A stretch of 61,857 bases of DNA, counting the filler. It is 7 parts of 7 records of this genome, joined end to end, with 100 filler letters (N's around TTAATTAATTAA, not from the genome) between each part and the next. Parts side by side here need not be neighbours in the genome. Positions count along the whole stretch, not along the records: positions 1 to 6,485 come from SRR31156797_27559; 6 more parts are not named here. One strand, written 5' to 3'. Below the pieces are notes generated by a model. That model searched no databases. It saw nothing but the letters and a program-made list of their open reading frames with translations, and was not told where the DNA came from. Made by a program: the position numbers and the translations under genes. Shown piece after piece: positions 1-9,700 of this stretch (position 1 is the stretch's first letter; every line of letters starts with the position of its first letter).

Positions 1-1
1 T

Positions 2-46
2 TATAGAACACTTTGTACGTTTAGGTTTAAAATTGAGAGGAAGTGA
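2..46 (+). repeat. Orphan peptide-coding junction element, copy 1 (YRTLCTFRFKIERK*), truncated by window start
   Basis: Aligns without gaps to 1309-1353: 7/14 aa identical, same TGA position, 29/45 nt. Confidence 0.6.
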
Positions 47-67
47 AATATCTCACAAATATAAAAA

Positions 68-955
68 TCAAGGATTGATATGATAAGATAATAATTTCAC
101 TTCTTTAGAATGATCACCATATACACCCCCCTCAATCAATCCAACATCCTTTTTTAACACCCAATATGAGGTATAAGCAAAATGAGATTGAGGCTTTTCT
201 CTAATAGCTACCGTGTCCTCGTCAGATTCAAACAGGAAAGGAACTCCCGTATAAAAGATAGAAGCACCAATGGCACTGATTCCCCCTGTTGATGTCCAAA
301 AATAAAAATACTCGTTACTGAATTCATCCCATTTTACTCTTCTAACTAATTTTGCCACATCATGAAATTCACGAGGGTACACATAGTTTGAATCATGACC
401 GTAACCAATAAATGTTCCATTAAAATCACATGATAAATATAGTGTATCATTCATTTCGTCATATTGAATTATTTCCCATATCTCACGGCCATTATATTGA
501 TACTCAGACCCATAAGCCCCTACTTCGTATTCCCATTTATTTCCAATAGCTATGGGGAAATAGTTATTATAATTACTGAAATCTATACTTAAATCTATTG
601 TTATTGAATCTTTGGTGATATTACCATCTGTATCTGACACCTCACATCGAACATTTATTATTAAATGATTATGATAGGGAATCAATATTGCTTGGTTTTG
701 TGATGAAATTAAATATCCGCTGTCATTATACCAATTATATGTAAGTGAATCATTATTACTGTCACTTGCAAAACAAATTATTTTCAACGTGTCCCCATTC
801 TTGTATTCATCAAACAACTCTAATACATTTAAAGAATCTATTACCGGTGCATGGTTTGTTTCAAAAGGTTCAAAGTTACAATTATAAAAAACCACTCCAA
901 GAAAACATATGATTAACAAGGAAAATATCTTTTTCTTTAGGGGAGTTTTTGCCAT
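68..955 (-). CDS. Hypothetical secreted/lipoprotein with Ig/PKD-like N-terminal module and YFPxxxGNxWxY domain
   Basis: 295 aa ORF; hydrophobic N-terminus ending FYNC; NHAPVI...D.NNDSLTYNW...VSD.DG Ig-like pattern; NYFPIAIGNKWEY motif; AT-rich. Confidence 0.7.
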   Translation of the reverse strand: MAKTPLKKKIFSLLIICFLGVVFYNCNFEPFETNHAPVIDSLNVLELFDEYKNGDTLKIICFASDSNNDSLTYNWYNDSGYLISSQNQAILIPYHNHLIINVRCEVSDTDGNITKDSITIDLSIDFSNYNNYFPIAIGNKWEYEVGAYGSEYQYNGREIWEIIQYDEMNDTLYLSCDFNGTFIGYGHDSNYVYPREFHDVAKLVRRVKWDEFSNEYFYFWTSTGGISAIGASIFYTGVPFLFESDEDTVAIREKPQSHFAYTSYWVLKKDVGLIEGGVYGDHSKEVKLLSYHINP

Positions 956-999
956 ATAAGCACCATACTTTAGTTTAATAATTATTTTTCTAACTTTAT

Positions 1000-1028
1000 A
1001 AGATAGAATTTACCAATAATAATGTCAA
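1000..1028 (-). promoter_or_regulatory. Sigma70-type promoter for 68-955
   Basis: TTGACA (1028-1023), 17 nt, TATCTT (1005-1000). Confidence 0.55.
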
Positions 1029-1111
1029 TAACTTAAAGTAGCTGCCTGTTCACCCGAAACGTCAGTAGATTATTTATAACTGTCTATATGGCTAAAAAAT
1101 TAATTCTCGGT

Positions 1112-1155
1112 GAGATCCTGAATAAACATGCCGACGGCATATTTTTCAGGATGAC
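1112..1155. repeat. Palindromic intergenic element GAGATCCTGAA...TTCAGGATGAC with inner ATGCC-GAC-GGCAT hairpin
   Basis: Nested inverted repeats visible in the sequence. Confidence 0.55.
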
Positions 1156-1172
1156 TATGTGTATGTGGTTTG

Positions 1173-1202
1173 GTATACGGAACAGGCATGCCTGTTCCCT
1201 AC
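1173..1202. repeat. GTAG-family REP-like palindrome
   Basis: Perfect palindrome GGAACAGGCATGCCTGTTCC followed by CTAC (GTAG on the minus strand). Confidence 0.65.
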
Positions 1203-1257
1203 ACTCCGCATCTCCCCCTCTCCCCCTCTCAGTGCTCCCCCTCAGCTTTTTGTTCAC

Positions 1258-1286
1258 AAAAAGCAAAAACCGCCAATGGCGGTTTT
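1258..1286 (-). terminator. Rho-independent terminator at cassette junction
   Basis: AAAACCGCC-AAT-GGCGGTTTT stem with T-runs on the minus strand. Confidence 0.7.
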
Positions 1287-1287
1287 A

Positions 1288-1353
1288 ATGCGGGGACAAC
1301 GAGAGCCGCACCGAACTCTGTTGATTATTAGGGTTAAGTTGGATAGAAAGTGA
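1288..1353 (+). repeat. Degenerate copy of tRNA-Asp 3' end (att-like) fused to orphan peptide tail, copy 2 (MRGQREPHRTLLIIRVKLDRK*)
   Basis: 1288-1311 matches 2374-2397 at 16/24 nt without gaps (shared GCGGG and ACGAGAG); 1309-1353 is homologous to 2-46. Confidence 0.6.
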
Positions 1354-1452
1354 TCATTTACGAGGGGTTAGGAGTGAATAAAATTCTTATTTAAGGATTA
1401 ACGTATATTATTAGTTCAAAATGCCTGATTATTCGGGAGAAGGTTATCAAAT

Positions 1453-2184
1453 TCAATTAAATGAAAATCCGCATTCAAAATTTATTGCATTCAAATTTAT
1501 CCAATTATCTTTATAATCTACACTTCCCATTGATTGTATTTTTTTTATATGATTAGTGTATGTAATTGCGCAAGATAATCTGTCAGATATTAGTTTGATC
1601 CCGCCATGGACAATCAAGCCCGAATTAACAACATCAGAAATACCATCTGTATACCCTGTTAGACATTCAATATTATCAATGGTATCATCATAATAAACAA
1701 ATTCACCCCAATCATACATTGTATTATCGAAAAGATAATGGAATAGCGCATAACCCATACCAACAAACGGTGCAATGGAAAGAGATTGGTTTATTTCTAA
1801 TAAATATTCTAGTAGTAAATTTAGCTCAATAATATCATAGTTAAGATAAATATCTGAATCACGATGTACCATATCACCTGGCATCACTAGTAAAATATCC
1901 TTATTTAAAATTTCCATTTTGATATCCGTGTATTTTAATCCATATTGCAGGAAGAAATTTTTTCCTAAATGCTTTTTTCGATAATACCCTAAATTGAAGC
2001 TCATTTTTCCAATTTCATCATTTGCAAAAAGTTGAGATCTATTTAAGCCAACAAAGACGGTATTTTTATAATAAGATTTTTCGGAAAGAGAATCAATACC
2101 ATCATTTGCATATATTTGTGTTAAAAAAACAAATAAAACAATTAACGCAATTTTTACTGTAGTTTTTTTACTTGTTTTATTCAT
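1453..2184 (-). CDS. Putative outer-membrane beta-barrel protein
   Basis: Signal peptide (IYA/ND), alternating aromatic beta-strands, C-terminus FECGFSFN; AT-rich. Confidence 0.7.
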   Translation of the reverse strand: MNKTSKKTTVKIALIVLFVFLTQIYANDGIDSLSEKSYYKNTVFVGLNRSQLFANDEIGKMSFNLGYYRKKHLGKNFFLQYGLKYTDIKMEILNKDILLVMPGDMVHRDSDIYLNYDIIELNLLLEYLLEINQSLSIAPFVGMGYALFHYLFDNTMYDWGEFVYYDDTIDNIECLTGYTDGISDVVNSGLIVHGGIKLISDRLSCAITYTNHIKKIQSMGSVDYKDNWINLNAINFECGFSFN

Positions 2185-2326
2185 TTTTATTCAACCTGTT
2201 TAGATGCATTAGTGCGTCTAAAAATCTTCAAAGTTAATTATTAAAATTTCATAGTAAGTTAAGAGATACATTTTAATTTACCAAGTATGATTGTATGCAA
2301 CTTTAACCCGGTGGCTTTTTCATACC

Positions 2327-2367
2327 AAAATAAAAAACGGTCGTTGAACAAGTGTTCTGTACGACCG
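2327..2367 (-). terminator. Hairpin/terminator downstream of tRNA-Asp
   Basis: CGGTCGT...ACGACCG stem with inner GAACA/TGTTC, then T-run on the minus strand. Confidence 0.6.
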
Positions 2368-2373
2368 CTGTTA

Positions 2374-2450
2374 TGGCGGGACTGACGAGAGTCGAACTCG
2401 CAACTTCCGGCGTGACAGGCCGGTGCTCTAACCAGTTGAACTACAGCCCC
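2374..2450 (-). tRNA. trnD: tRNA-Asp (GUC)
   Basis: GGGGCTGTAGTTCAACTGGTTAGAGCACCGGCCTGTCACGCCGGAAGTTGCGAGTTCGACTCTCGTCAGTCCCGCCA; cloverleaf, GTC anticodon, encoded CCA. Confidence 0.97.
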
Positions 2451-2465
2451 GTGAAAAAGCTGACT

Positions 2466-2494
2466 ATTATACGGCATAAAGCATAATTAGTCAA
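2466..2494 (-). promoter_or_regulatory. Sigma70 promoter of tRNA-Asp
   Basis: TTGACT, 17 nt, TATAAT just upstream of the tRNA. Confidence 0.75.
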
Positions 2495-2556
2495 TAACTT
2501 TTTATCATTTGTGAATTTTTTGTTCAAGACAACCCTTGAATAATTAACAATTGAAC

Positions 2557-2580
2557 CCTCCGTAGCTTTAGCGAAGGAGG
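2557..2580. repeat. Small imperfect palindromic element CCTCCGTAGCTTTAGCGAAGGAGG
   Basis: GC-rich hairpin in an AT-rich intergenic region. Confidence 0.45.
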
Positions 2581-2705
2581 AAACAATCGAAGGAAATATC
2601 GAATAACGATTTACGAGGGATATTGAACTGCTACGCAGTTCGTTTATAAAGAAAAATCGATTTCTACTATATTCGACTACTATGTAGTCTCTTTAATTTT
2701 ACTCC

Positions 2706-2743
2706 ATTCACGACCTTTCACGTTTCACGTCTTACGTCTCACG
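2706..2743. repeat. Degenerate heptamer tandem repeat (TTTCACG/TCTTACG/TCTCACG)
   Basis: attcacg-acc-tttcacg-tttcacg-tcttacg-tctcacg. Confidence 0.6.
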
Positions 2744-2810
2744 TCCTATTTTTTGTTTGCATTTACTTGCACAAATCGTATTTTTATATGATACACACAG
2801 GAGAACGCTA

Positions 2811-4628
2811 ATGAATTACCAATTAGACTACTTAAAAACGATGCCGGAAGTTTTTGCCGATGCGCTGCTTGGCGGCATGGACCGTAAACTTTACAATGTA
2901 AAAAGAAATGAAAAATGGGTCAGCTTTACCTATCGTGACGTTAATGAAAACATCCAACGGATCGGTTTTGGACTTTACGCTCTTGGAGCTAAAGCCAAGG
3001 ATCGTGTGGGTATCCTTTCAGAGAATCGACCGGAATGGAATATGTTCGACCTGGCTTGCGCTCATTTCAACATCACCTCTGTCCCGGTTTATCAAACTTG
3101 TATTCCCAAACAGATCGAATTCATTCTTAACCACGCCAAGGTTAAAATTCTGGTAGTTTCTTCAAAAGAGCAGGCCGAAAAGGTCATCTCAATCAAGAGC
3201 ACCCTTAAAGAACTTAAATACATGGTTATCTTAAATGATCATGATTATGATGACAACTGGATCATCTCCTGGGATGATATGCTGAAAAAAGGCGATGAAG
3301 AAAAAGAGACATCAAAACTCACTATGCTGGAAATCGCAGCCAAGGTGAAACCGGAAGATCTTTTCAGCATCATCTATACCTCGGGTACTTCCGGTGATCC
3401 CAAAGGTGTGATGATCTCACAATTCAATATGGCTTCCAACGTTCAGCAGTCACAAGCTGCCATTGGGTTCCAGAAAAATAAGAAATGGCTGTCATTTTTA
3501 CCACTGGCACACAGTTTTGAACGTGTAACTTCCCTGTTTAGCATGTGGATCGGTGCAAATATCTACTTTGCCGAGAGTATTGCAAAAGTTGCAGGAAACA
3601 TGAAAGAAGTAAAACCTCAGTATATGACCACGGCTCCCCGTCTTCTTGAAAAGGTCTACGCGGGTGTTCAGGAAAAGGTCGCCTTGGGTTCACCTATAAA
3701 GCAAAAAATATTTGCTTCGGCACAACGCACAGCGCATGAGGTTGTTTCGAAGTATTTGTCCAAGAACAAAAAGCCAAAAGCTTTGCTTGCCGCACGCTAT
3801 GCGCTGGCAAAAAAATTGGTATTCAATAAGGTCGCTGATGTTTTCGGTGGCGAATTTATTCAATGTGTCAGCGGCGGTGCTCCCCTTTCCGAAGAAGTGG
3901 GTGAATTCATTACCGCAGCCGGTATTGATATAATCGAGGGTTACGGTTTAACGGAAATGTCTCCGGTCACTCACGTCAATCCACCACATATGGATACTAA
4001 ATGGGGAACGGTCGGCCCGGCGGTTCCTGATGTGCAAACCAAGATCGCTGAAGACGGTGAGATCCTGCTTAAAGGACCAAACCGCATGGAAAAATATTAC
4101 GATAATCCGGAAGAAACCGCTGAAGCCATCGATCAGGATGGTTGGTTCCATACCGGTGATATCGGTTTCGTTGATGAAGATGGTTATCTTAAGATCACCG
4201 ACCGCAAGAAGAACATCATCGTTACGGCCGGCGGCAAGAACATTGCTCCTGCTGCTGTGGAACGTGAGATTTGTTCTTCCAAATTCATTGAACAGGCCGT
4301 CGTGATCGGCGACAGGCGTAAATATCTTGTAGCCGTTCTGGTTCCTGCAGTGGATATCTTTGCAAAATGGGGTAAAATGCAAGATCCTGCGGTTGAACTG
4401 AACAGCTATGACGATGTTGCCAAATTCGATGCCGTGCATAAATTGATCAAAGATGAACTTGAAGCTCACCAACAGGAATTAGCCCGTTACGAACAGATCA
4501 AGTATTTCTTTATAGCACCTCAGCCTTTCGCTATTGATACCGGTGAAATGACGGCCAGCATGAAGATCAAACGTAAACATATTATCGAGAAATACAGCGA
4601 AGAGATCGAAAAACTTTACAACAACTGA
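2811..4628 (+). CDS. Long-chain fatty acid-CoA ligase (AMP-forming), paralog 1
   Basis: YTSGTSGDPKG, EGYGLTE, GWFHTGDIG and ITDRKK motifs; ATG 2811 follows AGGAG. Confidence 0.92.
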   Translation: MNYQLDYLKTMPEVFADALLGGMDRKLYNVKRNEKWVSFTYRDVNENIQRIGFGLYALGAKAKDRVGILSENRPEWNMFDLACAHFNITSVPVYQTCIPKQIEFILNHAKVKILVVSSKEQAEKVISIKSTLKELKYMVILNDHDYDDNWIISWDDMLKKGDEEKETSKLTMLEIAAKVKPEDLFSIIYTSGTSGDPKGVMISQFNMASNVQQSQAAIGFQKNKKWLSFLPLAHSFERVTSLFSMWIGANIYFAESIAKVAGNMKEVKPQYMTTAPRLLEKVYAGVQEKVALGSPIKQKIFASAQRTAHEVVSKYLSKNKKPKALLAARYALAKKLVFNKVADVFGGEFIQCVSGGAPLSEEVGEFITAAGIDIIEGYGLTEMSPVTHVNPPHMDTKWGTVGPAVPDVQTKIAEDGEILLKGPNRMEKYYDNPEETAEAIDQDGWFHTGDIGFVDEDGYLKITDRKKNIIVTAGGKNIAPAAVEREICSSKFIEQAVVIGDRRKYLVAVLVPAVDIFAKWGKMQDPAVELNSYDDVAKFDAVHKLIKDELEAHQQELARYEQIKYFFIAPQPFAIDTGEMTASMKIKRKHIIEKYSEEIEKLYNN

Positions 4629-4652
4629 TAAACCATTTCACAGGAGGTTATT

Positions 4653-6467
4653 ATCAGCTATTCTTTGAATTACATCAAGACGATGCCTGCACTTTATGCA
4701 GATGCATTATCAAAACGCCCGGACGTTAAACTTTACAATTACAAGTCAAAAGGTGAATGGAAAAGCCACACTTATCAGGAAGTTTATAATTTACTGCCTG
4801 ATCTTGGTTTTGGTTTACTAGCGCTGGGAATTAAAGAGCAGGAAAAAGTGGGCATACTGTCCGAGAATCGACCGGAATGGTGTTTCTTTGACTGGACCTG
4901 TGCTCATTTTAACTTTGTTTCGGTTCCTGTCTACCAGACATCCATTCCAAAACAAATAGAGCATATTCTCAATCATTCCGGGGCTAAGGTCGTGATCGCC
5001 AGTGACGAAGAACAACTTAGCAAGTTGCGCTCCATCAAAAGCAAGATCAAAGCCGTAAAATATGTCGTGATGCTGGACAACAAAAAGCGTGATGAGGCGT
5101 GGATCCTTACTTTGAAAGAATTGAAAAAAATGGGTAAGGAAAAAAGGAAAGAATCCTCCGTCACTATGCAAGATATTGCAGCAAAGATCAAGCCGGACAA
5201 TCTTTGGAGTATTATTTATACTTCCGGTTCCACCGGTGATCCCAAAGGTGTGATGATCTCGCAGTTCAATGTGGCAGCAAATGTTCAGCAAACGCAGGCA
5301 CACACACAATTCAAGGCAAATAAACGCTGGCTGTCATTCCTCCCCTTAAGCCATACCTTTGAGCGTGTAACTTCCTTGTTCAGTTTTTGGGTCGGTGCCG
5401 AGATCTACTTTGCGGAAAGCATTGTAAAAGTACCTGACAACCTTAAAGAGGTCAAACCGCATTTTATGACGACCGTACCGCGTCTTTTAGAAAAAATATA
5501 TGCCACTGTGATCGAACAAGTTTTAGCAGGACCTGCCGCAAAACAGGAGATATTCAACTGGGCGCAAAAAGTCGGACATAAAGCGGTTGTTAAATATTTA
5601 AAAGACAACAAGACACCATTGGGTCCGACCGGGATCAAGTATGGTATTGCCAAGAAACTGGTCTTTAACAAGATCGCCGCTGTTTTTGGCGGTGAATTCA
5701 AGCGATGCGTCAGCGGTGGCGCTCCTCTCGCTCCCGAGATCGGTGAATTTTTCCTGATGTCGGGTATCCGTGTTATGGAAGGCTATGGTTTAACGGAAAT
5801 GACGCCTGTTACTCATGCAAATCGTAATGATCATCTTGAGTTCGGTACCGTTGGTAAAGCTCTTCCGGATGTACAGACAAAGATCGCCGATGATGGCGAG
5901 ATCTTGCTGAACGGTCCTAACAAGATGCAGGGTTATTACAAAGCTCCTGCCGAAACGGCTGAAGCGATTGACAAGGATGGCTGGTTCCATACCGGTGATA
6001 TCGGGTTCATTGATGAAGATGGTAATTTGAAGATCACAGATCGAAAGAAAAACATCATTGTCACTGCCGGAGGTAAGAATATTGCGCCTGCAGGTGTTGA
6101 ACGGGAAATATGTTCATCGAAATATATCGAACAAGCTGTTGTCGTTGGTGACCGAAGAAAATATCTGGTCGCGATCGTTGTTCCCTCTTTAGATATTGTA
6201 AACAAATGGGGTAAAAAACTTGACACTCCTATGGAATTTGAGACATATAAAGATATGGCAAAATCTAAAGATGTGGAAAAATTGATAAGAGACGAACTGG
6301 ATGTGCATCAAGGAGAACTGGCTCGCTATGAACAGATCAAGTATTTCTTCATTGCGCCCCAGCCATTTGCTATTGAAACAGGTGAACTGACTGCAAGCAT
6401 GAAGATCAAACGCAATGAGATCATCAATAAATACGATCTGGAAATCGAAGAGCTTTATAATAATTAG
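4653..6467 (+). CDS. Long-chain fatty acid-CoA ligase, paralog 2 (start ATC 4653 or TTG 4665)
   Basis: YTSGSTGDPKG, EGYGLTE, GWFHTGDIG; colinear with paralog 1. Confidence 0.92.
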   Translation: MSYSLNYIKTMPALYADALSKRPDVKLYNYKSKGEWKSHTYQEVYNLLPDLGFGLLALGIKEQEKVGILSENRPEWCFFDWTCAHFNFVSVPVYQTSIPKQIEHILNHSGAKVVIASDEEQLSKLRSIKSKIKAVKYVVMLDNKKRDEAWILTLKELKKMGKEKRKESSVTMQDIAAKIKPDNLWSIIYTSGSTGDPKGVMISQFNVAANVQQTQAHTQFKANKRWLSFLPLSHTFERVTSLFSFWVGAEIYFAESIVKVPDNLKEVKPHFMTTVPRLLEKIYATVIEQVLAGPAAKQEIFNWAQKVGHKAVVKYLKDNKTPLGPTGIKYGIAKKLVFNKIAAVFGGEFKRCVSGGAPLAPEIGEFFLMSGIRVMEGYGLTEMTPVTHANRNDHLEFGTVGKALPDVQTKIADDGEILLNGPNKMQGYYKAPAETAEAIDKDGWFHTGDIGFIDEDGNLKITDRKKNIIVTAGGKNIAPAGVEREICSSKYIEQAVVVGDRRKYLVAIVVPSLDIVNKWGKKLDTPMEFETYKDMAKSKDVEKLIRDELDVHQGELARYEQIKYFFIAPQPFAIETGELTASMKIKRNEIINKYDLEIEELYNN

Positions 6468-6485
6468 AATTCCAATACACAGGAG

Positions 6486-6585
6486 NNNNNNNNNNNNNNN
6501 NNNNNNNNNNNNNNNNNNNNNNNNNNNNNTTAATTAATTAANNNNNNNNNNNNNNNNNNNNNNNNNNNNNNNNNNNNNNNNNNNN
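6486..6585. other. Artificial contig linker
   Basis: 44 N + TTAATTAATTAA + 44 N; stop codons in all frames. Confidence 0.98.
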
Positions 6586-6715
6586 CAATGTTCACCAAAG
6601 GTCAGTCCATCCAGCTTCAGTTTCTTCAGTGTTTTGGCAATGAATATAGGCTACTATAATTCATAGTCAAAAACTTTGAACCTGAAGCCGCCTGAACTGA
6701 TGATAAATCCGGGCT
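6586..6715. repeat. Long imperfect palindromic (MITE-like) element at contig end
   Basis: GCTTCAG..TTCAGTGTTTTGGCAATGAATATAG pairs with CTATAATTCATAGTCAAAAACTTTGAA..CTGAAGC (6614-6688). Confidence 0.5.
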
Positions 6716-6791: not shown

Positions 6792-9700
6792 TTACTCAAC
6801 TGATCTATCCCCCAGGTTACCGTATCTATGGTAATTATCGCAGATTGACTGCTGCTGAAAATACTGAAGCAACTCCAAACGCCCTTCCATAAGTACAGGT
6901 GCCCTTGAAATATAAAAACCGACTTTGGCAGCAGCAGTAAACACTTCTACCGGCACTCGGTCCTGATCTGCATACCGGATACGATCAATCTCTCCCATTC
7001 GACCTGCCAGCTCTCCATCAGTTTCACGTAGGACCCTGACTTCCTGTAAAAGCTGTTTTCCATAGTGGGTTTCCAAAAACCTGGTCACACTATTTTCTAA
7101 CGTGGATGGTATACTCAGGGTTGTACAGCACCTTGCCACCCTGGAAGCTGCAACACGAGCAAAGGTATCAAACGGTGAGTCTTCAGAGTGAACACGGATT
7201 ACCATGTTGCGAATCGGGCGGTAACGCAGAATATTATCTTGCCCCCGGAGATGAAAATAATCCTGCTCCTGGCCGAAACGCGCCTCCATATTATAAAGAT
7301 AGCTGTTGATGGCACTGATCAGTTTTTCCAGGTCCTCTTTAATATCAGCCATTTTTCCCCACTGAATCAGCTTACGCCATTCCTGCGCCAGCTGCAGCAG
7401 CTGGTAGTCCTGATCCAGACGTTGCTCAGCCGGATGCGCAACCTCTTCAAAATCCATGAACTGGGCAACATAGTCAGGGCTTCCCGCCTTGAGTCCAGGG
7501 CCCAGTGCGGATTTCCCCATCCCGCCAAATGGCTGACGCAAAACAATGGCCCCGGTTGTTCCACGGTTTACGTACAGGTTACCGGCGAATATCTGTTCTT
7601 TCCACACTTCCTGCTCCCGGTGGTCCAGGGTCTCAATACCTGAGGTCAGGCCATACCCGGTCTGGTTGACCAGGGAGATGGCATGTTCCAAATTTTCAGC
7701 CCGCATGACGCCAAGCAGCGGTCCGAAAAACTCTGTCATGTGAGTGTAACTACCCGGCTGAACCCCATACTTAATCCCTGGAGACCAGATAAAAGGATTA
7801 TCATCAACCATCCCCGGCACCAGCGCCCATTCCTCACCCGAATCCAAGGTTGTGAGACCCCGCTTGAGATCTCCACTGGGCGGTTTAACCAAAGTTGCAA
7901 TCTTGCTGCTGAACGTCCATGCAGAGCCAACCTTCCAACTTGCTGCGGCATCAACCAGTTGCTGTCTGAAATGTGGATCATCATAGATGGTCTTCTCCAG
8001 TACAAGCAGGCTGGTTGCACTGCATTTCTGGCCGCAGTTACTGAAAGCTGAATGAATAACATTTTTAATGGCCTGGTCGCGATCAGCCATGTCGGTAACA
8101 ATGGTAGCATTTTTACCGCCGGTTTCCGCTGCAAGGTAGACTCCCGGAGTCTGCTCCAAAATCTGGAGCCCAGTATCTGTCCCACCAGTTAAAATAATGA
8201 AATCCACATCCTCACTTGCCGTTAACAGCGGCCCGACCTTTGCACCCGAACAGGGTACAAACTGGAGGGTATTTTTAGAAATACCTGCACGCCAGAAACA
8301 CTGGCAAAGTTTCCATGCCGTCATTACCGCGTCCGATGCAGGTTTAAACACAACCGTGTTGCCTGCTGCCAGCGCAGTAACCACTCCTCCGCATGGGATG
8401 GCAATGGGAAAGTTCCATGGAGAAATAACCAACCCGACGCCCTGTCCTTTGGTTTCTATGTTCTCAATATCGTCAAGTTGACTTGCGGTCAGAGGATAAT
8501 ACTCGGCAAAATCAATAGCCTCGGACACCTCCACATCTCCTTCCATGAAGATCTTACCAGTGTCTCCGGCTGCCGTACCCAACAATTCTCCTCGGGCTGC
8601 CCGCAGTTCAAAGGAAACCTTGGAAAGTGCCTCATGCCGCTCCTGAGCACTCAATTTTCGCCAACCGTCGGGATCCTGCTTTGCCGTGGCAATGGCCTTG
8701 AGCGCATCCTCTTCATTTGCCATGGCAAATTTGGCCACACATACTTTTTCCTGAGGCTGGTTGGGGTCGATCACTTCCTTGGTAACGCGCCCCTCATATA
8801 ACTCCTCTCCTCCAATGACCACTGGAATCCGGATGGGCGTGTTACCTGCTGATTTCTTATATTCATCTCGAATACCCTCAGCCCATTTTCGATTAGCCGC
8901 CAAAGCCCAATCCGTATCTGCCTCGTTGACAAATCGGTTGGAATAATACGTGGAAGCGGACGCCGGAAAGGTTTCCATTGACCGATCCTGGATTCGGTTG
9001 GGCCCGTCCTGGGCGAGTTCCTGATGGGCACAAGAGCTAAGAAAACTCCCTTTAAGATAGGCCCATTCATTGGAACCTACTGAAAGATCAGGTGAATAAC
9101 GCAGAAAATTTTCAGGCGCGGTATTTTCATCCAGCCGACGAATGAGATAGGCAATGGCATTAATGAACTCATCTTTCGAGGCCACAGGAGCATAAAGCAG
9201 AACATCACCGTCTCCCTCACTGAGTGCCCGACGTACATGATCAGCCATGCCCTCAAGCATTTCAAAATAAAAATAGGGGTTCAGATTATTTTCCCTGGCC
9301 AGTACCGCTGCATAGGCAAGTTCAAAAAGATTGTGGGAAGCTACCCCAAGATTAACGGCCTTAATATTTTCCTCTTCCATCCCATAGGTGACCATTCGCT
9401 TATAATTAGCATCCACCTCAAGCTTGTTATCGTATGGGGCAAGGGGCCAATTAAAGAGAGCCGACTCCAGTTTCTCCATTTCCATATTAGCGCCTTTTAC
9501 GATTCTCAACTTGACCGGCGCACCCCCGTTTGCAACTCTCTCTTTTGCCCAGTTGGTTAATTTTCGCTGCATCCCGAAACTGTCGGGCAGGTAGGCCTGG
9601 AGCACGATCCCACCGGAATAATCTTTAAACTCCTCTTCGTTCAAAGTCTCAGTAAAGGCGGCATAAGTAATTTCCAGATCCCTATACTCCTCCATATCCA

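Follow-up and report, generated by a model that had tools for sequence, protein, structure and literature searches.

A tRNA-Asp gene and two stacked units

The window, i.e., the whole stretch of DNA that was analyzed (61,857 nucleotides, filler included), contains a tRNA-Asp(GTC) gene with two small units lying side by side to its left, behind the tRNA's 3' end. Both units carry a single cargo gene and are bounded by a junction element of about 70 nt, here called J, and the origin of J and of the stacked units is the subject of this analysis. The host is an uncultured marine bacterium of Candidatus Neomarinimicrobiota (Marinimicrobia), given that the acyl-CoA ligase encoded right of the tRNA gene has relatives of 80–82% identity in metagenome-assembled genomes (MAGs) of that name. 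Copies of J were recognized with R1, a sequence-only model built from seven copies. Moving left from the tRNA, the following features are found (ORF, open reading frame; LSR, large serine recombinase):

2374–2450, minus strand: tRNA-Asp(GTC), the proposed insertion target (ARAGORN; Rfam, 65.5 bits)
2300–2373, plus strand: putative remnant of an LSR gene, its last ~20–25 codons (P arm), which aligns with the LSR 3' ends of L067 and L124
2327–2367: long hairpin within the LSR remnant, predicted to terminate the tRNA transcript now (fold z = −3.5)
1453–2184, minus strand: cargo gene 1, 243 amino acids (aa), with a signal-like N-terminus (ORF)
1287–1358, plus strand: J1, complete junction element consisting of core and recombinase tail (R1, 69.2 bits, E = 4.7e-20)
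1266–1286, minus strand: hairpin B of the type-1 module, intrinsic-terminator-like (terminator scan, 1286–1266, and fold)
1243–1262, no strand assigned: hairpin A of the type-1 module (fold)
1205–1240, plus strand: C-rich box of the type-1 module, G-rich in the direction of the tRNA (direct reading of the sequence)
1000–1028, minus strand: promoter-like site of the 295-aa gene, TTGACA, 17-nt spacer, TATCTT (10/12, consensus match only)
68–955, minus strand: cargo gene 2, 295 aa, with a Cys after its signal-like N-terminus, by eye resembling a lipoprotein (ORF)
2–47, plus strand: J2, partial junction element with the distal recombinase tail (P' arm), truncated at the window edge (R1)

A sequence-only reading of this stretch had described one layout occurring twice behind tRNA-Asp, and every feature that it listed was verified at its coordinates, from which the unit lengths of 1086 and 1307 bp follow. 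Its statement that the two cargo genes are AT-rich and face the same way holds as well: both lie on the minus strand, with a G+C content of 0.22–0.41 compared to 0.40–0.50 in the ligase genes. The same is true for the absence of a recombinase, as the ORF list contains no recombinase gene in either unit and a tblastn search of the window with two LSRs gave no match at E ≤ 10. The own promoter that had been proposed for the 295-aa gene fared less well; the 10/12 site exists, but such sites are not enriched here (18 vs. 15.6 in shuffles). An Rfam scan of positions 1–4000 returned the tRNA as its sole match. Folded together, hairpins A and B reach z = −5.3; the stem of hairpin A shows compensatory changes among copies, and a hairpin identical to B precedes the J copies of L001, L060 and L069. 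J2 matches model positions 24–69 of R1 with 36 bits (E = 1.1e-9). Since the 12-mer GCGGGGACAACG occurs once in the 61.9-kb window, the element is local to the tRNA-Asp spot and not a dispersed repeat. A repetitive extragenic palindromic (REP) sequence or a miniature inverted-repeat transposable element was considered and ruled out, with one full and one truncated copy in 62 kb. The junction likeness was not picked up by a gapless repeat finder.

The junction element and the large serine recombinase of tRNA-Asp

The origin of J was traced through LSR genes of relatives. In L124, a gene for a 545-aa LSR (521–2158) converges on tRNA-Asp (2149–2223) with an overlap of 10 nt, and its reading frame stops within the tRNA after ...TTVKRD. 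The protein has the Pfam domains Resolvase and Recombinase and the catalytic-serine stretch YIRVSTKHQ; the best NCBIfam matches of the LSR, XisF and CcrB/C, stay below the cut-offs. A second LSR gene overlaps tRNA-Asp by 64 nt in another genome of the phylum (L129). The closest homologue, P0002, ends ...AIMRD. The ending SNSQLPA is seen in 9 of the 42 LSR homologues and is encoded by window positions 2389–2415, antisense to the tRNA.

L067 provides the decisive link. A frameshifted LSR remnant in this contig (1137–1845; 68–82% identical to P0002 residues 309–545 by tblastn) continues in frame into J at 1840–1906 and ends ...KVFGTTAIMRGQRRSSRTLFTYRFKLDKK. P0044, an independent database ORF of 74 aa, has the same LSR end followed by a different tail, ...KVFGTTAIMRGQRRSSRTLFSFSIKLSEV (also written ...RGQRRSSRTLFSFSIKLSEV). 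Read in the J frame, J1 gives MRGQREPHRTLLIIRVKLDRK and then a stop, with a frame and register that agree with the LSR genes of L124 and L067, and J2 gives YRTLCTFRFKIERK and then a stop. The integrated form of the LSR ends ...KRD or ...MRD at a stop supplied by the tRNA, and the form joined to J has 21 more codons. Because of the in-frame run in L067, the end of P0044 and the open frame of J1, J appears to be the last ~21 codons of a tRNA-Asp-specific LSR gene, neither an integron attC nor simply a worn tRNA end. We consider it very likely that the junctions originate from the recombinase gene, and J1 would then function as an attR-type scar.

The sequence-only reading had envisaged an integrase whose C-terminal tail is separated by an attP inside its own gene. 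That part stands on L124, L067 and P0044; the enzyme is, however, an LSR and not a tyrosine integrase of the SSV1/Mx8 type. A recombinase with such a tail is represented by the broken L067 gene and the P0044 ORF, and an intact full-length gene was not found. The idea of tRNA-derived sites did not survive, as the junction consists of recombinase-gene sequence with a resemblance to the tRNA end. This resemblance extends over ~19 nt of the J core, with changes, and L069 has a near-exact fragment of 26 nt. Within the window, positions 1288–1320 compared with the tRNA 3' end score 26, which is chance level in a 62-kb search, as unrelated places score 25–28; the likeness is convincing only through the J family and its context.

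The LSR query has matches in 21 of 401 genomes of a phylum sample, and the LSR gene overlaps a tRNA 3' end in 11 of the 21 loci examined (two Asp, eight Asn, one Arg). The genes run 22–42 nt into tRNA-Asn(GTT) in L131, L133, L134, L138, L139, L140, L147 and L148 and, within the same range, into the 3' end of tRNA-Arg(TCT) in L145. J was sought in 11 LSR loci and found in none.

Distribution and arrangement of the J family

R1 gave 38 matches in 13 of the 33 genomes of one Candidatus Neomarinimicrobiota family. In another sample of the phylum, 15 of 151 genomes had matches, 13 of them being the same family genomes; the other two (G086, G120) have weak matches that were set aside, as they lie in high-G+C DNA with no tRNA nearby. 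The sample holds 120 genomes from elsewhere in the phylum that have no strong match, and 118 of these show nothing. J copies form same-strand rows of two to about ten at distances of 1 to 3.5 kb, with two to five copies per contig, and one metagenome contig of 108 kb carries eight copies over ~20 kb, including one multi-gene unit of 11 kb. In all ten contigs that have both, J is located on the 3' side of tRNA-Asp(GTC) and on the opposite strand, in line with the earlier proposal that units are stacked by insertion at this 3' end. Because L001 and L111 apparently show the same arrangement, these ten contigs count as nine independent cases. L001 itself has two full copies and one partial copy of J between three unrelated surface-protein genes behind tRNA-Asp.

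The core motif is present in 25 of 35 J copies and a stable hairpin lies upstream of 34 of 35, from which both may be expected left of position 1 as well. The J frame is open in 34 of 36 copies, the stop position is the same in 24 of 36, and the stretch common to all copies around the exchange point measures only ~17 nt. J was not found in viral contigs: in IMG/VR, the 18-nt core had two matches on high-G+C phage contigs that lack the tail (chance matches) and the tail pattern had none. HUH transposases (PF01797) are unrelated to J; they occur in 27 of the 33 genomes, G019 and G013 have J without any of them, and G026 has ten and no J.

J-bounded units also occur between a queA-like gene and a gene for a 392-aa protein (L071, 2880–4490; L112, 1950–5260). 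These two loci were considered as a clean pair of empty and occupied sites, which was rejected because the neighboring secreted-protein genes differ too; they represent a different unit number and content at one locus and not a single insertion. Another pair, L072 (2337–2540) and L063 (7000–7710), comes from genomes that are 96% identical across the ligase genes and wholly different beyond them. In one of them, two units lie behind tRNA-Asp; in the other, an inverted J abuts the upstream region of the ligase gene, an arrangement suggestive of an array inversion. Intergenic DNA repeatedly contains a short REP-like palindrome (window 2559–2583; L073, ~6840–6885; L061, ~6625–6670), which is inserted within the core of two J copies and splits it by ~45 nt.

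Sequence modules before the J core

Two kinds of sequence directly precede the J core. Type 1 consists of two hairpins and a C-rich box (window 1205–1286). In L002 and L005, this module comes directly after tRNA-Asp genes that are uninterrupted, which identifies it as the flank natively present downstream of the tRNA. Type 2 consists of a long hairpin of the kind seen at 2327–2367; the window, L001 and L006 have it behind the real tRNA-Asp, and it is also found before many internal J copies. The two hairpins of the window had previously been regarded as equivalent parts; both do fold, but the one at 2327–2367 is an LSR remnant and the one at 1266–1286 is of the native terminator kind.

Over its first half, type 2 repeats the first 26 nt of J in inverted orientation, as indicated by opposite-strand R1 matches in the window, L069 and L123; in the window remnant at 2300–2373, the match covers 2347–2372 on the minus strand (E = 0.023). 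It follows that the core is flanked by inverted arms of ~23 nt. Such a dyad is the layout expected of a serine-integrase attP. In 14 LSR-less junctions, including that of the window, the LSR gene ends of both L067 and L124 can be aligned with the ~75 nt that precede the core, and in all 14 the likeness to the LSR gene begins at about the same point. Six of the 14 share a further stretch of ~50 nt that is not LSR sequence, despite different cargo. Together with the common starting point, this looks like one backbone that has been reused. Tails and upstream modules are variously combined, and since the J1-type tail occurs with four different upstream modules, the exchange is placed at the core.

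Some other tRNA-associated modules were observed. In G001, the tRNA-Ser(GCT) gene has an apparent displaced copy of its last bases ~410 nt further on (L020, 1002–1640; L025, 1–110), accompanied by the module of two hairpins and a G-rich stretch; another contig has the uninterrupted arrangement. Small GIY-YIG nuclease-like genes lie behind tRNA-Asp-like pseudo-copies in L002 (2110–2655) and L124 (2290–3180). These modules are located on the 5' side of the real tRNA-Asp together with a duplicated stretch of the tRNA promoter region, and L124 has two of them in tandem. The GIY-YIG assignment was made by eye from the motif, and the 81-aa protein of L002 has no NCBIfam match.

Proposed mechanism of integration and stacking

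Taken together, the window units are probably integrated, recombinase-less mobile elements that were stacked at the 3' end of tRNA-Asp by a tRNA-specific LSR. According to the proposed mechanism, attP would lie inside the last ~45 codons of the LSR gene itself, and we infer that the crossover takes place within the core, in its G-run. The LSR gene would be cut on insertion into the tRNA end: its body would stay beside the tRNA and terminate early at a stop supplied by the tRNA, and the last ~21 codons would be moved to the far end of the insert, where this tail and the crossover core would constitute J (1287–1358 and 2–47). The hairpin at 2327–2367 would be the leftover of the codons just before the crossover and would at the same time be the tRNA's new terminator. 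An array in which the newest unit adjoins the tRNA would result from successive insertions at one tRNA end.

Chances are about even that LSR-less units, consisting of att halves and cargo (~1–3 kb), can still be moved by an LSR acting in trans. A more far-reaching and tentative reading is that a resident or visiting tRNA-Asp LSR captures small circles of only attP and one promoter-bearing gene. The system would then be the equivalent of an integron, based on a serine recombinase, and would diversify surface proteins secreted by the type IX route. Such circles would be inserted between the 3' end of the LSR gene and the tRNA, each restoring the C-terminal tail of the LSR, and the array would thereby be built and reshuffled within natural Marinimicrobia populations.

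Cargo of the units

A type IX secretion sorting domain is carried by 20 of the 56 unit-encoded proteins, and six have GLUG motifs; BNR/sortilin, PD40 and FecR domains occur among the others. The cargo thus mostly consists of surface proteins, as had been suggested from the sequence alone. One long unit encodes a TonB-type receptor as well as sugar kinases and a transporter. Among the 25 listed of 37 cargo families, none is a recombinase family. The 243-aa protein of the window has no Pfam or NCBIfam family and is 61% identical to a 250-aa protein encoded between two J copies in L109; J2 is 91% identical to the J copy of L109 that adjoins this homologue. For the 295-aa protein, Pfam gave only weak Ig matches below the cut-off, NCBIfam none, and a metagenome scan at the Joint Genome Institute no relative. 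In L060 and L061, cargo genes lie on either strand, with 100–500 nt of intergenic sequence before genes.

Variation of units among genomes

The number and order of units differ among relatives, as the sequence-only reading had anticipated. A two-gene unit adjoins the tRNA in L067 and takes the second position in L069, and L115 has in its tRNA-Asp array a unit encoding a 339-aa protein that is present with the same ends at another locus in L112. J lies at one end and the P-arm remnant at the other, with no recombinase ORF, and such retention of both att sites without a recombinase is the composition by which cis-mobilizable elements (CIMEs) are recognized.

Variation was also observed in the contigs of one public run that holds the window and is probably its source (contigs with 30-nt overlaps, not reads). 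Depth is 18.1 for the 243-aa unit compared to ~50 on both flanks, so in the probable source sample the more abundant form has no 243-aa unit. A contig with a depth of 41.9 joins position 1250 to 2376, and AAGCGGATGTTG, a variant of the type-1 hairpin, precedes the tRNA end there. A further contig has the same hairpin variant joined to a J1-type tail and then the end of a secreted-protein gene. None of the source-sample contigs runs past position 1. The 310-nt spacer upstream of the 295-aa gene has two more palindromes (window 1128–1140 and 1173–1204); source-sample contigs end at the former and carry a different loop sequence there. Just upstream of the first acyl-CoA ligase gene, runs of 6–7-nt repeats (CACGTC/TTACGTC-like) are present at 2709–2746, with counterparts of variable length in relatives (L001, 6180–6330; L005, 590–690; L006, 520–620).

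Weighing of the evidence and of other explanations

Several observations weigh against the stacking of these units by a tRNA-Asp LSR or against their continued movement. The link between LSR and J consists of a single broken gene, a short ORF from a database and the agreement of reading frames, and no intact LSR gene with a full J tail was found in the homologue and database searches. The tblastn search found no LSR of this family in the window. Among the 13 J-positive genomes, which are all incomplete MAGs save for a few large contigs, an LSR of this family is present only in G025, as a remnant; the serine recombinase domain PF00239 occurs in three of the 33 family genomes, none of them J-positive. 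A codon-position test on the J tail is not significant (entropies 0.80, 0.50 and 0.85; p = 0.083). The second J locus (L071, L112) has no tRNA or tRNA fragment in view. Standard serine integrases are not known to target attL, so serial stacking requires an LSR family that is laxer in this respect. As regards movement, no circular junction was seen, and the 'empty' form, which comes from assembled contigs, differs from the window from position 1250, inside hairpin A, onwards. Because of these other hairpin variants, it is the form of another strain and not a simple excision product. The family of the 243-aa protein carries the other J subtype in L109 and the DNA likeness is confined to the gene; cargo and tail are not strictly linked.

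One alternative is decay only: each unit would have arrived complete, including an LSR gene that was subsequently deleted in place, and the arrays would be graveyards whose LSR-less units never move. The L067 gene, cut to its last ~240 codons and frameshifted, is an intermediate of this kind and speaks against movement, as does the 72–85% identity of shared units between genomes, which implies that the events are old. Moreover, a deletion must spare the hairpin that terminates the tRNA, and this requirement alone could explain why the remnants are so uniform. Against decay, all 14 LSR-less junctions begin to resemble the LSR gene at about the same point, six of them share ~50 nt of non-LSR sequence despite different cargo, the 339-aa unit has the same ends at two loci, and an LSR-less unit is present or absent within one sample. 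J in 13 of 33 genomes also stands against a single intact LSR of this family. Decay as the whole explanation is rather unlikely in our view.

The remaining explanations dispense with the LSR. A conserved site after each gene, a hairpin nearby and an array-like layout would all suit a tyrosine recombinase, either IntI-like, with J resembling attC, or an integrase with an internal attP as in SSV1 and Mx8. The Pfam integrase family (PF00589) is, however, found in all 33 genomes, and five J-positive genomes have only the two Xer-like genes that are found in every genome; no listed PF00589 match lies on an array contig or near an array, and there is no such ORF at window 1–6500. J continues the reading frame of a serine recombinase, its tail is largely unpaired in folds of either strand (unlike attC) with the hairpins lying outside J, and cargo genes face either way, which leaves this explanation with an almost negligible probability. 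Host Xer recombinases, known from dif modules and integrative mobile elements exploiting Xer (IMEX), have in their favor that the two Xer-like genes are the only recombinases in every J-positive genome. The J-negative genomes carry both as well, and J has no 11-6-11 dif-like layout, its inverted halves being ~23 nt long and ~10 nt apart; as the LSR reading frame directly accounts for the J sequence, movement by Xer is highly improbable. It is also very unlikely that no site-specific step is involved and that J and the hairpins are a conserved 3' untranslated region and terminator, between which genes are swapped by homology of the flanks as in minimal mobile elements. Many cargo genes have J directly behind their stop codon, with a terminator following it, and this would fit, as would the uncoupling of cargo and J subtype. 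J is nevertheless confined to arrays, almost always at tRNA-Asp (one full and one truncated copy in 62 kb), is missing from 118 of the 120 genomes without a strong match elsewhere in the phylum sample, and is the in-frame end of an LSR gene, and the ~17 nt common to all copies around the exchange point are short for RecA-driven exchange.

Comparison with known systems

Stacking by a tRNA-Asp LSR has its closest described parallel in the ssrA-specific islands of Dehalococcoides. As described in the parts of McMurdie et al. (2011, PMC3146451) that deal with them, these islands lie in tandem downstream of a tRNA-like gene and are bounded by a 20-bp repeat of the tmRNA gene end; insertion is in the T-loop region, and the gene for a serine recombinase of ~540 residues lies beside attL on the reverse strand. 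About half have no integration module and were suggested to be cis-mobilizable, and a conserved motif lies beside the repeat (PMC3146451). The units described here are likewise in tandem downstream of their target, each bounded by a repeat of the target 3' end. The LSR beside attL that reads towards the target is present in L124 and L129 and as a remnant in L067, and the window keeps its last ~20–25 codons. On the other hand, the target here is tRNA-Asp instead of tmRNA, the units measure 1–3 kb and often hold a single gene (theirs, ~12 kb), the cargo consists of surface proteins, and no second small recombinase or other integration-module genes were seen. In addition, the LSR frame crosses the attachment site here and the scar is the enzyme's own C-terminal tail, which is not stated for DsiB in the same parts.

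The stacking of att-flanked units without their own recombinase at one target, thought to be moved by the enzyme of a relative, is shared with CIMEs. Tandem accretion of the ICESt1/ICESt3 type relies on conjugative helpers and on integrases of the tyrosine class; the present system has a serine recombinase instead, with no transfer genes in view. With integrons, the arrays have in common rows of small, mostly single-gene units, a conserved recombination site, a fixed insertion point and a content that varies between strains; they differ in that there is no IntI, J is not a folded attC, genes have their own promoters and face either way, and insertion is at a tRNA end. The attachment site within the recombinase gene, with a C-terminus that is altered or removed by integration, is reminiscent of SSV1 and Mx8, whose integrases extend across attP according to the passages of the Islander paper that mention them (PMC4383910). 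Theirs are viral tyrosine recombinases, whereas the enzyme considered here is an LSR with Resolvase and Recombinase domains. Compared to a tDNA island as defined in that paper, the window units have no integrase ORF and, at 1086 and 1307 bp, are below the size of at least 2 kb. The relevant passages of the same paper, from 2014, further state that serine-family integrases are not known to target tRNA genes (PMC4383910). A keyword search of open-access text without supplements found no literature that describes arrays of this kind in Marinimicrobia or LSRs at tRNA-Asp whose own gene holds attP. The system can be described as tandem accretion by a serine recombinase at a gene of the tRNA type, with units that are reduced to about a kilobase, lack a recombinase and encode surface proteins.

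Significance

With the enzyme family identified, and with it what the junction is and where the hairpin on the tRNA side comes from, a concrete enzyme and attachment site can be named for the recombinase-less gene arrays behind tRNA-Asp. In at least one phylum, LSRs routinely target tRNA genes (11 of 21 loci), compared to none known in the pertinent text of the 2014 reference (PMC4383910). The sites are short and defined, with an attP of ~56 bp and the tRNA end as attB, and could serve as integration tools. For the organisms themselves, the arrays suggest that abundant uncultured ocean bacteria may vary their secreted surface proteins from strain to strain in this way.

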